NCBI GenBank assembly: GCA_951813575.1 | Contig: OX638375.1 | Coordinates: 3,498,752 to 3,562,751, forward strand | Source: Candidatus Binatia bacterium | Lineage (GTDB): Bacteria > Desulfobacterota > Binatia > UBA9968 > JAJDTQ01 | Direction of reading: 5' to 3' | Length of the DNA: 64,000 nucleotides | In this document: positions 9,042-23,970 of the stretch, one piece after another | Layout of the letters: every line of letters starts with the position of its first letter | Numbering within the stretch: position 1 is the stretch's first letter | Made by a program: the position numbers and the translations under genes | Notes under the pieces: model-generated | What the model saw: the letters and a program-made list of their open reading frames with translations, nothing else | Databases searched by the model: none | What the model was told of the DNA's origin: nothing

Positions 9042-9323
9042 TCACTCCACGCTTCTCAACTTCCCCGTCACGAATTTGTGGAGCGTGCTGGAGATCAGGG
9101 TTTGATAGGGCATCCCTTCCTTGGTTGCCTTCTTTTTTAGGGCTTCCAGATCGTGGGACGAGATCCGGATGTTGATGCGCTTGTCCTTCTGAAGGAAATC
9201 GTGTGCGGCTACTTCCAGTTTGCGTTTGGCTTCCTTGAAGTGGGTGATGCTTGTAAGTTCCCCACGTTCAAAGTCCTGGAGGAGTTGCAATTCCTCTTCG
9301 TCCAGTTTGAGAGGTTTTTTCAT
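9042..9323 (-). CDS. brnA: BrnA-family antitoxin (CopG-like)
   Basis: 93 aa with an acidic N-terminal part, then INIRISSHDLEALKKKATKEGMPYQTLISSTLHKF, typical of BrnA. It overlaps upstream brnT by 4 nt and sits in a local low-GC patch (about 50%). Confidence 0.7.
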   Translation of the reverse strand: MKKPLKLDEEELQLLQDFERGELTSITHFKEAKRKLEVAAHDFLQKDKRINIRISSHDLEALKKKATKEGMPYQTLISSTLHKFVTGKLRSVE

Positions 9324-9607
9324 CCGAGGTACTCCCTTGTCGCCCTTCTGCTGGGGATGATGGTTTTGAGAAACCGTGTTCCTCTCCGTTCCACGTACGG
9401 GACCAGGTACACGTACTCTTCCATGTTCAGAACGATGATCCGCTGGTTCGGATATCGGGATGCATTGGGATGCCTGATGATATCCAGGATGTCGCCATTC
9501 TCGATGTGAAAGACCACGTCTTCAAAACCCACGCCCCGTGTCTTCTCGAGTAGCGCATTCTTTTCATCATCCCAGTCGAATGCAGGCACGTCCGAGAACC
9601 CTCCCAT
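9320..9607 (-). CDS. brnT: BrnT-family toxin (DUF497 ribonuclease)
   Basis: FDWDDEKN...RGVGFEDV......QRIIVL.....YLVPYVERRGTRFLKTIIPSRRATREY matches DUF497/BrnT conserved positions. Confidence 0.75.
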   Translation of the reverse strand: MGGFSDVPAFDWDDEKNALLEKTRGVGFEDVVFHIENGDILDIIRHPNASRYPNQRIIVLNMEEYVYLVPYVERRGTRFLKTIIPSRRATREYLG

Positions 9608-9690
9608 GCTGTGTGCCTTTTGTCAACAGCTTGGTGTTCGTCCGGCGTCCCTACCGAAAATCCCGACTCTTCCTCCGCACCGACTCCAGC
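9606..9690. repeat. Diverged duplicate (copy A) of the dnaE2 3' end and 3' UTR, 1.75 kb downstream of the real dnaE2 terminus
   Basis: About 78 bp with about 90% identity to 11363-11447 (copy B), which spans the dnaE2 stop codon. The minus-strand frame reads ..[13 protein letters not shown], against the genuine dnaE2 end ..[16 protein letters not shown]. Confidence 0.55.
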
Positions 9691-10157
9691 GCCGTCGACC
9701 TCCGGGGAATCGCGGTAACCGACGCCGAGGTCGATCTCGGGGCGCCTCCGACGTGGTCCTCACCATGAGCGGCGGGGTCCTGTCCGGTTCCGTGGCGGGG
9801 GCGGGGAGCCTTCGGTACTAGGGCACGGTCTCCGAGGAGCGGGTTCAGGTCGCGGGCGTCACCCGTATCGTCCACCACCGGGAGTGAACGGGGCTCCGCC
9901 GGCGCCGCTCGGAATGTCGTGCGCCGGCCGTTCAGGCGATGCGGAGCCGCTTCGATCGAGCCGGAAGCGACCGCGGTGTCACACTTCCTCCGGGGTCGGC
10001 GTGGATGTCCGCGGAATATCCCAGTGTCAAGAAACTCGGAGGTCCACTTCTGTCGATGGGCACCCAAGCTGATCGACCGTGCCATACCGGCGTCAACGCG
10101 GGGGAGAGATTCCAAGACACCGGACTGAAAAATCTTCCATCCGCGGGGGAATCCAAG

Positions 10158-10552
10158 ATGAGTGACTCCAAACGACATGTAACCATTGCTGCGAGGGCCG
10201 TTCCGCCGCGAACGAAGCCATCCAACTACCCGGAGCCGTACTTCAGCCGTATGACCAAACGAGAGCAGAAGCCGCTCGGCGACTTCTTCGGCCTGAAGAA
10301 TTTCGGTGTGAACCTCACCAAGCTGGTGCCCGGTGGTGAGTCCGCACTGCTGCACTCTCACAGCAAGCAAGACGAGATGATCTATGTCCTTGAGGGCGAA
10401 CCAACGCTGGTAGTCGAGTCCGGCGAAACTATGCTCGCACCCGGCATGTGCACGGGTTTCCCGGCGCAGGCGAGGCGCATCACTTGGTCAACCGCACCGG
10501 CGAGGACGTTGTGATTCTGGAGATTGGTGACCGCACTAAGGGCGGCATATGA
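10158..10552 (+). pseudogene. Cupin-domain protein with a frameshift (or sequencing error) near 10470
   Basis: MSDSKRHV...LLHSHSKQDEMIYVLEGEPTLVVESGETMLAPGMCTGFPA then a frame jump. The shifted frame continues AGEAHHLVNRTGEDVVILEIGDRTKGGI* (cupin motif 2). GGGGGAA sits before the ATG. Confidence 0.45.
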
Positions 10553-10914
10553 GTTTCAGAGGGGCGGGAATCGAATGCTCCGGCTGCGGCGGAAGTAGAC
10601 AGCCTGACAGCGCCGAATGGGCGCACCCGCCTCACAGGACTGCGTGACCCGTGGCTCAATCCGACCGACCGAGTCCAGTGTGGACGAACCGGTCGCCGAC
10701 CACTCCACAAGGACAGACTAAGGCACAGGCCATGGCCATACCTTCAGCTTGGTATTTCGAGAGGTTGGGCGTATGATGACAGCGGAGATACCACTTGTGT
10801 CGGCCGACCTTCACCATGGCAGTCGTTCGGGCTGTCCTGAGTGCCAATAGTACGGATGGTTCGCCATCCGGGAAATATCGGTTCAATCAAATAGTGGAAT
10901 AGGGAGAAATTACA

Positions 10915-21646: not shown

Positions 21647-22099
21647 CCTGATTGAACTCCGTGGCGAAAGGCTTCCTGAAACCTTCGAAGGGCACTCCGC
21701 CGTCCGCACCCGCCCATACCAACAGCCACCGCATTGGCGCAGAGTGGACTGGTAGGTAGTTTCCAACTCCTCCCTCCGCCCTCCGATACATCGCCTTGCA
21801 GTGCGGCCGTGGCTTAACCTGGAGGTCACACGTTGGTTTCCAGCACAACCCGTCTTCCGACTGGATAAACCCTCGAACAAAAGTCTTCAACGGCGGCGGT
21901 CCAAAGCACCGCCGTCAGGCAGGAGACGAGCCCCCATTTCGCGCTAACGCTCATGCCATCATTCTCCGCGTTACAACGGCGGGAGTGGATCGACCCGCAC
22001 GCTTTTCGCCCCTCGGTCCCTTGAGAACGTCCGAACTATGGCTAGAGACAGAAGCGCTGGCGGACTCGATGCTACCTCTATGCACGGGAACCGGCCAAC

Positions 22100-22537
22100 G
22101 ATTATTGAATGCTGCCACAACTCCGTTTTCTACAATCTCTAGAATAGGTACCACGACTACCTCCAGTTCCCGCTGGTCGTCGTGTCCTTTGTTGCTCCAG
22201 ATAGCGTTGGCGTTCCGCCTGGCGCTGCCGGTTGAACTGAATAATGTTCTGAAGCGTATTCTGGAATGCCTTCTGTGCGCCCCCGCTGCCTCCGAAGGTG
22301 GTGGTGCTGGGTGCGCTTGAGCCCAACTGCTTCTTCCAGGCTGCCGCGGCTTCGCGCTCCTTGAGCAAAAGTCTTCAACGGCCGGAAGACGGCCGTGGAG
22401 GCGCATTTGACGGTGTCTCGGGCGTTCTCCAAAGCATCGCGAAGACCTGCCTCCGCGGAAGGAGCAGCCAACGCCACCCCAGCGGCTAGGGCCGCGGGCA
22501 GAACGGTGGAGCGAAAACATTTCGGCAAACGAGTCAT
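22100..22537 (-). pseudogene. Possible frameshifted small secreted protein (signal peptide, then Q/R-rich region in a second frame)
   Basis: ORF 22157..22537 starts MTRLPKCFRSTVLPAALAAGVALAAPSAEA (signal peptide). The plausible continuation AWKKQLGSSAP..QNTLQNIIQFNRQRQAERQRYLEQQR is in the +1 frame (ORF 22102..22368). Confidence 0.25.
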
Positions 22538-22547
22538 CTCGTGCCCC

Positions 22548-23030
22548 CTATTCGGTCAGCGACGTCAGGAACAGCCGTTGCAACCCGCAACTCCCTCCGC
22601 TCAGCCGGCAAAGAGCGAAGACATAGAGACGGCCGTCCTCCGGAAGTGACGCCACCATCAGGCGATGGTTCCCGCCCGCATCGAGCGTCATGTCGAGTCG
22701 CAGTCCCGCGACGAATCCCGCGGGGAGACGCGCCAGCGCGCTGGCGGTTGCGGCGTCCGTGTCGGGAGCGCCGGCCCGGATCGCGGCCGCATCCCTGGCC
22801 GCGAGCGCGTCATCGATCCTCTCCAGCGTCGGACCGAGCCACACCGGGCGGCCCGCGGCCCATTGCACGCGCATCGCCATATTCCACGCCAGCCGTGGAA
22901 AAACCGCGCGCATGTCGTTCGCCGCGGCCGCGAATGTCACGCCATCCCGGAAGCCCTCCAGAGCCGTAGCCGGATGGGCCTTGCGAAACGATCCGAGCCG
23001 CCGGGCCGGGATGTCGCGGAGAGCCGCCAT
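22548..23030 (-). CDS. Hypothetical protein (no family recognised)
   Basis: 172-aa ORF 22548..23066, with MAALRDIPARRL as the likely start. Composition is protein-like but there is no identifiable motif. Confidence 0.3.
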   Translation of the reverse strand: MAALRDIPARRLGSFRKAHPATALEGFRDGVTFAAAANDMRAVFPRLAWNMAMRVQWAAGRPVWLGPTLERIDDALAARDAAAIRAGAPDTDAATASALARLPAGFVAGLRLDMTLDAGGNHRLMVASLPEDGRLYVFALCRLSGGSCGLQRLFLTSLTE

Positions 23031-23300
23031 CGGTCCAGCCTTGTCCTTGGTCCATGGGGGTTGCAACGCGACGGGCGCCGCAGCATCGGCAAATCCGCCC
23101 TGCCGATGTCGGCGACACGGCGCTTGCCGAGCCGCGGGAGGATACGCCCGTCGATGATCTTTCGATGGAGCGCGGCGGTGGCGGGCTTCAGATGGCCGGG
23201 CGCGTACTCGTCCATGAAGCGCCGGGCGAGGTCGGCCATGGTGGCGCCGCCCGCCTTGCGGGGAGTCTTCCCTTCGAGGTCGCGCCCGGTCCTGGCGAGG
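22950..23300 (-). pseudogene. Tyrosine integrase N-terminal (core-binding/SAM-like) fragment, degenerate
   Basis: The minus-strand frame reads ..GRDLEGKTPRKAGGATMADLARRFMDEYAPGHLKPATAALHRKIIDGRILPRLGKRRVADIGRADL. This resembles P4-type integrase core-binding domains (TFxEvAxxWlexHxxxlkpsTxxxyxxxLexxilPxlGxxxixeI). No catalytic domain follows. Confidence 0.4.
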
Positions 23301-23970
23301 GTGACGATCTCTGCGGCGCGCGGCCGCCGGGGTGATGGGACCGCGGATTTTCCGACCGTCCCCCGGTCGAACTCTCCGGCATCAGCTGGACACGAAACCG
23401 GCGATTGACCCCGGCCCGGCGGGGCGCTACGGTGACTTTCTCCGAGGCACCAAACTGACTTGAGGACATACGCGCGCTTGCAGCGACTTAGTATTGGTTG
23501 AATGGGGTTACATATCGATTACGGCTCAAATGAGAATATTCCTAACATATTGATAAATAGGCCAAAAAACGATTTCAATGCAGAAAGGACCCGCAGATTC
23601 ATAACGCTATTTGTGAGACAGGACACTAGATAGTTAGCTGTTCCTGGTAAGATCGACCTCCATTTGAGTCGAGGACGATCATTCGGCGGCGGACCAGTCG
23701 GAGGGATCGACCGCCGGCCGGAATGGATCGTGGACACGAAGGCATCTTGCCTTGAACTCTGCCTCGCCCATGGTTGCCATTGGATTCACCTCTTACGCAG
23801 GGAGCACCTGAAAATATACAACAGTACACTCATAGTATACATGTTCAAGCTGTGCTGTCCGATCGCGATACCTGTCGAGCCCCGATTCGCACCCCGCTAC
23901 ACTATCTGTTAAAAATTTTCCCATCTCGCTCCGAAACCCACGAACGACACCGGGGCCGGGAGGATGCAGC

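Follow-up and report, generated by a model that had tools for sequence, protein, structure and literature searches.

The region between positions 9042 and 23970 of a 64,000-nucleotide (nt) stretch of the Candidatus Binatia bacterium contig OX638375.1 (this whole stretch is called the window) carries a mutagenesis operon, lexA-imuA-imuB-dnaE2, together with a diversity-generating retroelement (DGR) and several toxin-antitoxin (TA) modules. An original prediction, made from the letters of the sequence, described this interval as a 14-kb accessory island combining two mutagenesis systems. Comparison with relatives points elsewhere: we consider it likely that the interval is a resident, native SOS mutagenesis operon located between two hot spots of gene flux, and that the DGR relic and the TA modules are incidental neighbors.

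The predicted components (BrnT/BrnA, a cupin gene, a repeat of the dnaE2 3' end, the lexA-imuA-imuB-dnaE2 cassette, an Xre/RES pair, a DGR, and an integrase fragment) are all present at about their predicted positions, as evidenced by family searches and open reading frame (ORF) coordinates. Genes in this GC-rich window (GC, 0.663) were chosen by their GC content at third codon positions (GC3) and by family matches. A metagenome scan with DnaE2 provided 80 loci (designated by L numbers), which were searched by tblastn with every protein of the interval, and the closest loci were compared by blastn. A search with the flanking CN-hydrolase identified L003 (OZ253480.1), a complete metagenome-assembled genome (MAG) chromosome from an uncultured Candidatus Binatia bacterium that is syntenic with the window, with 92% protein identity and 81 to 91% DNA identity. 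Also, exact protein matches revealed a dozen short metagenome contigs (L001, L002, and L084 to L091) that are collinear with and 98.7 to 99.9% identical to the window and so represent the same natural population; exact-match searches with LexA (long start) and with the ABC ATPase gave no match. The features on which the comparison turns are as follows.

8546 to 9034, forward strand: SixA-like histidine phosphatase (His_Phos_1, E 9e-12), the end gene of the conserved left flank
10915 to 11274, forward strand: predicted 119-amino-acid membrane ORF, conserved, convergent with dnaE2, within the block that starts at 10609
11399 to 14686, reverse strand: dnaE2 (imuC), error-prone polymerase (NF004225, 1346.7 bits against a cut-off of 939, matching from residue 46)
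14560 to 16092, reverse strand: imuB, Y-family-like mutasome subunit (IMS, 23.2 bits, exactly at the cut-off; weak Pol IV matches)
16070 to 16717, reverse strand: imuA, RecA-fold mutasome subunit (ImuA_translesion NF033429, 28 bits against a cut-off of 150, and RecA, 20 bits, both weak)
16805 to 17407, reverse strand: lexA, self-cleaving repressor of 200 amino acids (TIGR00498, 151 bits against a cut-off of 111; Peptidase_S24 and LexA_DNA_bind)
17419 to 17444, reverse strand: lexA promoter with a perfect 8-4-8 palindrome, TACCAGAC-AAAA-GTCTGGTA, at the edge of the conserved block
23971 to 24903, forward strand: ABC transporter ATPase (ABC_tran), the opening gene of the conserved right flank

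The block from 10609 to 17444, which comprises the 119-amino-acid membrane ORF and lexA-imuA-imuB-dnaE2, is collinear in L003, L092, L093, L115, and L116 at 84 to 93% DNA identity, with dnaE2 itself at 89 to 93% in the latter four. Alignments on the lexA side end exactly at 17444 in all three informative contigs (L092, L093, and L115), and downstream alignments break off at 10609. Beyond lexA, L093 has 4.2 kb of unrelated genes and then the window's own ABC ATPase (92% amino acid identity) and permease (85%). Beyond dnaE2 and the 119-amino-acid ORF, L116 has 1.2 kb of other DNA and then the window's phosphatase and CN-hydrolase. The outer flanks, namely, the CN-hydrolase and SixA-like phosphatase on the left and the ABC ATPase and ABC-2/GldG-like permease on the right, are the same in related lineages wherever their contigs extend that far; the phosphatase is collinear in L003 and L116, and its protein is identical on 11 contigs of the population. 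Only two slots, 9037 to 10608 and 17445 to 23667, vary, each independently of the other, and their contents differ as follows.

Window: upstream of the lexA promoter, Xre/RES and the DGR block; downstream of dnaE2, BrnT/BrnA (BrnTA), a recombination scar, and a cupin pseudogene
L093: upstream, a ClpP-like SDH protease, a GNAT protein, and an intact Phd-PIN pair; downstream, not covered
L115: upstream, a WD40 protein; downstream, not covered
L116: upstream, not covered; downstream, a YdjM-family membrane protein
L003: upstream, not covered; downstream, a PIN_3 protein, dnaE2 fragments, and then BrnTA directly abutting dnaE2

In L116, the gene for the YdjM-family inner-membrane protein (2803 to 3825) occupies the place of the window's cupin pseudogene and BrnTA. 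In Escherichia coli, ydjM is a gene of the SOS regulon.

Base composition follows the same division, deviating from that of the host in both slots but not in the cassette. The cassette has a GC content of 0.69 and GC3 values of 0.86 to 0.90, and flanking core genes have GC3 values of 0.79 to 0.93. The slots, by comparison, have GC contents of 0.59 (9037 to 10608) and 0.64 (17445 to 23667), and their genes have GC3 values of 0.60 to 0.80. The local drop in GC reported at BrnT/BrnA was confirmed by measurement, at 0.50 to 0.53 versus 0.66 for the window. Because the block is collinear in relatives, the slot cargo is lineage specific, and the composition of the cassette is core-like, the interval is not one island. 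Gene order across the cassette is conserved with no boundary, a pattern that the original prediction had named as speaking against an island, while the TA and DGR segments do have boundaries. What stands of the island claim is that the slots hold decaying accessory DNA with sharp indel boundaries (TA modules and DGR and integrase relics); a single 14-kb island, which would have to include the conserved stretch from 10609 to 17444, does not. Selfish and mobile DNA would, on our reading, land in both gaps beside the operon and decay there.

Several points weigh against this reading. Just three or four related lineages were compared, all of them metagenome contigs or MAGs, and the closest complete genome (L003) was read up to the middle of lexA, where the locus ends, so that its comparison covers only the downstream slot. 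In addition, the cassette transfers horizontally over longer time scales, so native here means resident before these lineages split and not ancestral to the class. Finally, a LexA-autorepressed operon, with the cotranscription and LexA binding that it implies, is proposed on the basis of sequence.

The window's DnaE2 has PHP, DNA_pol3_alpha, finger, HHH_6, and OB domains, and models for replicative DnaE score below their cut-offs on it; its true start is probably near 14560, overlapping the imuB stop codon. The gene assigned as imuB lies between imuA and dnaE2 in many loci, its product is 35 to 88% identical in amino acid sequence to that of the syntenic gene in other cassettes, and a C-terminal GGWW...WFVHG tail is visible in its sequence. 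A C-terminal extension (ImuB-C) and the loss of active-site residues are described features of ImuB (PMC6511836). Similarly, imuA is syntenic in 14 of the 80 dnaE2 loci, at 42 to 87% amino acid identity to the syntenic gene elsewhere. LexA retains, as read from its sequence, the Ala-Gly cleavage site (VQAGG), the catalytic Ser (GESM), and the catalytic Lys (IKRL). The 119-amino-acid membrane ORF had no family match in a profile search; it is 95.8% identical in amino acid sequence in L092 and L116, which exceeds the conservation of its neighbors across lineages.

We propose that lexA-imuA-imuB-dnaE2 would be transcribed from a single promoter and that LexA, bound to the palindrome, would repress its own operon. 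Upon DNA damage, activated RecA would promote LexA self-cleavage and derepression, and the ImuA-ImuB-DnaE2 mutasome would then be produced and carry out error-prone lesion bypass, the activity known for this mutasome (PMC6511836, PMC10421592). Operons of this kind are widespread, LexA regulated, and well described (PMC3901139, PMC4951493), and autorepression by LexA has been shown experimentally for lexA2-imuA-imuB-dnaE2 in Pseudomonas putida and for lexA-imuA-imuB-dnaE2 in Opitutus terrae (PMC3901139, PMC4951493). The window matches the P. putida and O. terrae cassettes in gene order and content, in the placement of overlapping or closely spaced ORFs on one strand, and in the presence of a palindromic operator at the promoter upstream of lexA. 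Like the window's cassette, most described cassettes have a host-like GC content (PMC3901139, PMC4951493).

The palindrome occupies 17419 to 17438, with a CAGAC-N4-GTCTG core at 17422 to 17435, and lies 13 nt upstream of the lexA start codon, where it is immediately preceded by TTGCAT and overlaps the -35 element. Both the full palindrome and its core occur once each in the 64 kb. Across about 1 Mb of sequence from the 80 dnaE2 loci, the core has nine exact matches, every one of them upstream of lexA or imuA: seven at 28 to 107 nt before lexA, one at 404 nt, and one about 126 nt before imuA. Besides the window, the motif is carried by L092, L093, L100, L112, L114, L115, L126, L130, and L158. 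The core recurs upstream of lexA even in loci where DnaE2 is only 46 to 63% identical (L112, L114, L126, and L158), and L120 and L121 have it there with one mismatch; in the distant loci, it is placed between TTGACA and TAAAT-like hexamers. This conserved palindrome is probably the LexA box. LexA motifs from other bacteria include CTGT-N8-ACAG, GAAC-N4-GTTC, TGTTC-N4-GAACA, and GTTC-N7-GTTC. The candidate operator differs in sequence from these motifs, some of which are given in PMC4951493. A literature search found no description of CAGAC-N4-GTCTG and nothing on LexA in Binatia, and the motif may represent an undescribed LexA-binding sequence common to several uncultured lineages.

The larger, upstream slot and the sequence just past its right edge hold the following features.

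17471 to 18154, reverse strand: RES-domain toxin (RES, 116 bits, above the cut-off; called as a 227-amino-acid gene in L001)
18151 to 18555, reverse strand: Xre-type antitoxin of the RES toxin (Xre-like-HTH, 46.6 bits, and Xre_MbcA_ParS_C, 42.7 bits, both above the cut-off)
18632 to 18774, no strand: spacer with homology, by alignment, to the L093 sequence located after the intact PIN gene
18963 to 19365, reverse strand: DGR reverse transcriptase (RT) relic of about 134 N-terminal residues, with a 1-nt insertion at 19285, ending after YVLRG
19352 to 19726, reverse strand: Avd, DGR accessory protein, intact ORF (NF033474, 96 bits against a cut-off of 80; bAvd, 47.9 bits)
19774 to 19798, reverse strand: GC-rich hairpin downstream of the variable region (VR), GTCCAGGGGGC-GGA-GCCCACTGGAC, with one mismatch, read from the sequence
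19826 to 21646, reverse strand: secreted DGR target protein of 606 amino acids, with a signal peptide, Sel1, PG_binding, and ankyrin domains, and a C-terminal FGE-sulfatase/C-type-lectin domain; VR at about 19829 to 19954
22157 to 22537, reverse strand: small ORF with a signal peptide (read from the sequence), probably disrupted, whose 5' part is missing from L172
22937 to 23340, reverse strand: tyrosine-integrase N-terminal relic with no catalytic domain (Phage_int_SAM_3, weak match)
23359 to 23599, no strand: AT-rich end segment of the DGR block (GC, about 0.5), 97.9% identical to L172 18 to 258, which lies in another genomic context
23602 to 23625, forward strand: 24-nt sequence, TAACGCTATTTGTGAGACAGGACA, with a perfect inverted copy in L001 (zero chance matches expected)
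23668 to 23800, reverse strand: Phd/YefM antitoxin relic with a 138-nt internal deletion, plus the first five codons of a PIN toxin, by alignment to the intact pair in L093

The DGR is a relic. Its RT ORF starts normally (FDPKHRLVSAAPFRDRVVHH…SYANRKGKGTH…YVLRG) and then runs into unrelated sequence, while a 98%-identical homologue in L172 (P0122) continues with DIYRYFPAIDH… through the YVDD motif; the window's relic is thus without everything past about residue 134, including the catalytic YxDD region, and a profile search gave no RVT_1 match in it. The family order in L172 is target-avd-RT-template repeat (TR), and there the RT gene is followed directly by the TR start CGCGTGTTGCGCGGCGGTTCC, which is also the start of the window's VR. 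Across the 64 kb of the window, short-word blastn and tblastn detected no TR and no further RT, Avd, or target. Because most of the RT has been lost and the TR is gone, the DGR is dead, in that it cannot perform mutagenic retrohoming in cis.

The remainder of the element has familiar features. The target has an FGE-sulfatase match of 179 bits at residues 441 to 680, and among target homologues the last 40 or so residues, encoded by the 126-nt VR, vary at fixed positions within the scaffold GGSW..P..LRSA.R….AG.R….GFR[IV]A. Such a C-terminal FGE-sulfatase/C-type-lectin target is shared with TvpA-type DGRs of Treponema denticola (PMC5758913). Avd, DGR-type RT motifs in the N-terminal part, and a GC-rich hairpin after the VR are likewise shared with known DGRs, including the BPP-1 mechanistic model, from which the window differs in its truncated RT and its lack of a TR. 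The hairpin is conserved in L172 and L083, with a compensatory A/T change. The VR is heavily diverged between the window and L172 even though the surrounding DNA is 94.5% identical, which indicates that the DGR was once active.

Within the population, by contrast, the VR is static: comparison of the window with the 99%-identical L001 revealed 24 differences in 2.2 kb, none of them in the VR. The RT truncation is common to both variants, and other indels are specific to one. Relative to L001, the window has lost 680 bp at about 18953 and carries the 1-nt insertion of the RT relic, and in L001 the target is called as two ORFs owing to a 2-nt indel relative to the window. These small indels were read from assemblies, and their pattern is that expected under relaxed selection. 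The predicted pair of mutagenesis systems therefore reduces to one working system beside a DGR whose RT is truncated, whose TR is absent, and whose VR does not change. Two observations argue against so final a verdict on the DGR. First, assembly error could account for the 1-nt insertion as well as for the 2-nt difference in L001. Second, the 4.2-Mb contig that carries the window's RT relic (P0124) also carries target paralogues P0003 (77% identity) and P0008 (60%).

The second observation also suggests that the target might still be diversified in trans by an intact RT and TR elsewhere in the genome, in which case the local RT relic would be irrelevant. The target ORF, Avd, VR scaffold, and downstream hairpin are all intact in the window, remote targets and action in trans have been documented for DGRs (PMC5758913), and our TR search covered the window only. 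Nevertheless, a VR that is identical in the window and L001 despite 24 differences elsewhere in the same 2.2 kb, an L001 target called as two ORFs, and a mismatch in the hairpin stem make diversification in trans improbable.

Homologues of the RT N terminus raised a related question. The best 120 matches (P0121 to P0240) are all 231 amino acids or shorter, with breakpoints scattered along the RT. A real family of short RTs was disfavored for this reason, many of the sources being low-coverage long-read contigs or contig ends. The short homologues are probably frameshifted low-coverage long-read contigs and contig ends, although widespread real decay of this DGR clade is possible. In the related genome represented by L083 (a 596-kb contig of ENA ERZ25068966), two paralogous target-type genes, P0014 and P0002, lie 4.4 kb apart (3524 to 12022), with just short remnants of the start of Avd and the end of the RT between them and PIN/Phd pairs as flanks. 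This is another decayed DGR among TA modules.

Much of the upstream slot can be traced to a block that recurs elsewhere. Window positions 18965 to 22228 and 23359 to 23599 are 94.5 to 98% identical to positions 1 to 4300 of L172 (ENA ERZ25069711 ctg10301), which comes from another sample and in which the neighbors of the block are an IS3 OrfA, a large AAA_16 NTPase, and a type I restriction HsdR. L172 has kept a full-length RT, but an IS3-family insertion cuts its TR after about 25 nt, so that this DGR was killed there independently and by another route. As reconstructed from these loci, the block is 4.9 kb long and contains the AT-rich end, the integrase relic, the secreted ORF, the target gene, avd, and the RT gene. 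The integrase fragment (22937 to 23239) matches Phage_int_SAM_3 with an E value of 3.3e-5 and 24.5 bits (cut-off, 22.6) and is absent from L172; a 189-amino-acid ORF that overlaps the small secreted ORF at 22157 to 22537 had no family match in profile searches.

The site into which this block would have inserted is visible in L093. Window positions 23668 to 23883 align with the ABC promoter, the Phd gene, and the first five PIN codons of that contig, and the Phd'/PIN' relic and the post-PIN spacer flank the DGR block on its two sides. The Phd/PIN remnants at one end and the post-PIN spacer at the other indicate that the 4.9 kb between them replaced the body of a PIN toxin gene; an older Phd-PIN pair would thus have been gutted by the landing of a DGR-bearing mobile block. 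The 500-bp stretch that had been described as AT rich and noncoding is indeed AT rich and forms the edge of foreign DNA, with a GC minimum of 0.435 to 0.49 in 200-nt windows spanning 23400 to 23699 and values of 0.53 to 0.55 from there to 23999. It is not simply noncoding, in that it includes the Phd/PIN relic and the ABC-transporter promoter region, which is conserved in L093.

The 24-nt sequence at 23602 to 23625 may mark one end of the mobile block. Its inverted copy in L001 (2400 to 2423) lies 175 nt past the RT relic, inside the 680 bp lost from the window, a segment that in L001 also holds a fragment of an EamA gene. The repeat had no match in viral contigs or in any other locus examined, and no clear target-site duplication was found. 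The DGR block itself had no match among phages, and its plasmid matches were just short stretches of the FGE-sulfatase domain. DGRs are known to move horizontally (PMC5758913). It is a tentative, rather unlikely idea that the 4.9-kb block is, or once was, a self-contained mobile cassette with 24-nt terminal inverted repeats (5'-TGTCCTGTCTCACAAATAGCGTTA inward) and, as such, a previously undescribed DGR vehicle. If true, the cassette would carry a complete DGR (target-avd-RT-TR) from one chromosomal site, or one genome of a Binatia-like bacterium, to another and would explain the recurrence in L172 in an unrelated context, the replacement of the PIN gene body, and the integrase relic inside the block.

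Between the DGR block and the lexA promoter sits the Xre/RES pair, which has the layout of a genuine TA module of this type: Xre precedes RES, the genes overlap by 4 nt, and an AT-rich region of its own lies upstream of the Xre gene. RES was absent from all 80 dnaE2 loci by tblastn.

The downstream slot is smaller. Its features are listed here.

9042 to 9323, reverse strand: BrnA/CopG-type antitoxin (CopG_antitoxin, 35.7 bits against a cut-off of 28; BrnA_antitoxin, 23.8 bits against a cut-off of 26.1)
9320 to 9607, reverse strand: BrnT-like ribonuclease toxin (BrnT_toxin, 30.2 bits, below the cut-off of 34.5; GC, 0.53)
9611 to 9686, no strand: direct repeat copy 1, 76 nt, a relic of the dnaE2 3' end (last 12 dnaE2 codons plus 40 nt)
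10158 to 10548, forward strand: Cupin_2 pseudogene, 3' truncated (ORF at 10158 to 10514, frameshift near 10465)
11359 to 11434, no strand: direct repeat copy 2, 76 nt, the true dnaE2 3' end

BrnT and BrnA form a two-gene unit with a 4-nt overlap; the BrnA/CopG gene has a GC content of 0.50 and a GC3 of 0.66 and is absent from L116 and L092. The reported duplication of the dnaE2 3' end proved to be the 76-nt direct repeat, whose copies are 89% identical and have diverged from each other about as far as the window has from its sister lineages. In copy 1, the first 35 or so nt (9611 to about 9645) carry single-nucleotide polymorphisms of the L003 type, and the BrnT start to its left is also shared with L003, in which BrnT and dnaE2 are direct neighbors. 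Copy 2, on the other hand, is identical to the sequence in L092 and L116, where the 119-amino-acid ORF abuts dnaE2. Recombination between these two slot arrangements best accounts for the repeat, as a scar and not as an att site, and the BrnTA module would have brought with it 76 nt from the 3' end of another dnaE2. In L003, the phosphatase 3' end is duplicated and there are additional dnaE2 3' fragments; together with the window's repeat, these indicate that the downstream slot is prone to rearrangement in more than one lineage. A 239-amino-acid ORF at 9651 to 10370 was considered as a dnaE2 fragment, but only its last 11 residues qualify, and it is treated as spurious.

The cupin gene is a pseudogene, as had been proposed. 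Its conserved continuation, AHHLVNRTGEDVVILEIGDRTKGG, proceeds in another frame, and independent SPAdes-type and Illumina-type contigs from different samples align across the frameshift without gaps, which indicates that both the frameshift and the gene order are real and not assembly errors. The gene is absent from L003 and L116.

All three TA types in the interval resemble known type II systems. BrnT/BrnA, Xre/RES (of the MbcT/MbcA and ParS/ParT type), and Phd/YefM-PIN (of the VapBC type) have small, overlapping two-gene layouts and matching Pfam domains, and, like known modules, they occupy variable, low-GC pockets beside mobile DNA. They depart from these types in that BrnT scores under its Pfam cut-off and Phd-PIN is only a relic. 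The pairs would act, if at all, as autonomous addiction or defense modules. The original prediction also raised the possibility that they are cotranscribed with the operon from the lexA promoter, which gene positions and strands rule out: neither the TA modules nor the DGR is driven by this promoter, because Xre/RES and the DGR lie upstream of it and BrnTA lies 1.7 kb beyond dnaE2, behind two opposite-strand genes.

The view that all of 9042 to 23970 is one composite island, acquired or mobilized as a unit by a now-decayed integrase and carrying the mutasome, DGR, and TA modules, is largely refuted by these data, and we regard it as very unlikely. An integrase N-terminal relic and an AT-rich edge at one end, local GC dips at BrnTA and at 23400 to 23999, and the finding of imuABC cassettes on plasmids as transferable units (PMC3901139) speak for it. 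However, relatives without BrnTA, Xre/RES, the DGR, and the integrase relic retain the cassette and its promoter in collinear order within the same flanks, the cassette has a core-like GC3, and the DGR block recurs by itself in L172. Moreover, relatives do not have or lack the interval as a whole, between a single pair of boundaries; its breakpoints are internal (10609, 17444, and 23668) and not at two ends. In place of a functional integrase with direct att repeats, there is an N-terminal SAM-like fragment, and searches of the window for repeats and tRNAs placed neither a tRNA gene nor a matching att pair at the ends of the interval, the sole tRNA gene of the window being at 54146. The interval shares with integrative islands an integrase relic, an AT-rich edge, TA and accessory cargo, and, for the part from 17445 to 23667, absence from relatives. 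Unlike them, it has no tRNA target and no direct att repeats at its ends, and its integrase is reduced to some 50 to 100 residues. Its sole terminal repeat is the 24-nt inverted repeat, one copy of which is deleted in the window, while typical islands have att repeats, often at a tRNA.

It is about equally hard to credit that the frameshifts and truncations are assembly artefacts and that the real genome has intact cupin, RT, and secreted-protein genes. Scattered breaks in many RT homologues on long-read metagenome contigs suggest indel errors in such data, and the 1-nt insertion at 19285 is unique to the window. Against this, several SPAdes-type contigs, obtained independently and from different samples, show the cupin frameshift without gaps, L001 also has the RT truncation at YVLRG, neither the remainder of the RT nor a TR occurs anywhere in the 64 kb, and the Phd and PIN deletions are structural.

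Scarcely credible at all is functional coupling, in which the mutasome and the DGR were selected as neighbors, for example, through SOS read-through expression or through DnaE2 aiding cDNA integration: the genes from the target to dnaE2 all lie on one strand, no terminator-like site occurs in the RES-lexA gap (17408 to 17470), and the idea is so far unexamined in the literature, but Avd and RT were found by tblastn near the cassette in 0 of the 80 dnaE2 loci, including 10 with lexA and at least 3.9 kb upstream (the single target-like signal being a weak 83-residue match in L097), no cassette accompanies the L172 block or the L083 target homologues, the DGR, being upstream of the lexA promoter, is out of that promoter's reach, the space between the two holds a deletion scar and an autonomous Xre/RES module, and the DGR is inactive. 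That we found no paper joining DGRs with dnaE2 reflects the absence of a known link and not a discovery. We conclude that the adjacency is coincidental and that nothing links the DGR functionally to the mutasome. The claim of an unrecognized organization does not hold, since the lexA-imuA-imuB-dnaE2 order is well described and its neighborhood with a DGR is not recurrent; all parts belong to known families.

Two further observations concern the neighborhood at large. A palindromic repeat of about 95 bp with ATTCCC-N8-GGGAAT arms, resembling miniature inverted-repeat transposable elements or repetitive extragenic palindromes, occurs in the window (50308 to 50400), L003 (6441 to 6544), and L116 (6952 to 7053). 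It is also present in L092 (3327 to 3428) and L115 (4404 to 4505), there within an insertion of about 320 bp that splits the imuB match. In L003, the CN-hydrolase region is duplicated (6590 to 10905) around a gene for a 583-amino-acid protein with Schlafen/AlbA_2, HATPase_c_4, and Fic-like_C domains, which is either another insertion in this neighborhood or an assembly duplication.

Two mutagenesis systems can therefore come to lie side by side by chance, where insertion hot spots flank a conserved operon, and islands should be defined by comparison with relatives and not by gene content alone. For a single natural population, the locus records the stepwise decay of a DGR, with a shared RT truncation and other indels that are specific to variants. 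Beyond annotation, the significance of the interval itself is small. Its by-products are of more note, namely, a possible DGR cassette bounded by inverted repeats and the CAGAC-N4-GTCTG palindrome, which supplies a candidate LexA operator for Binatia and other uncultured lineages that have no described SOS regulon.

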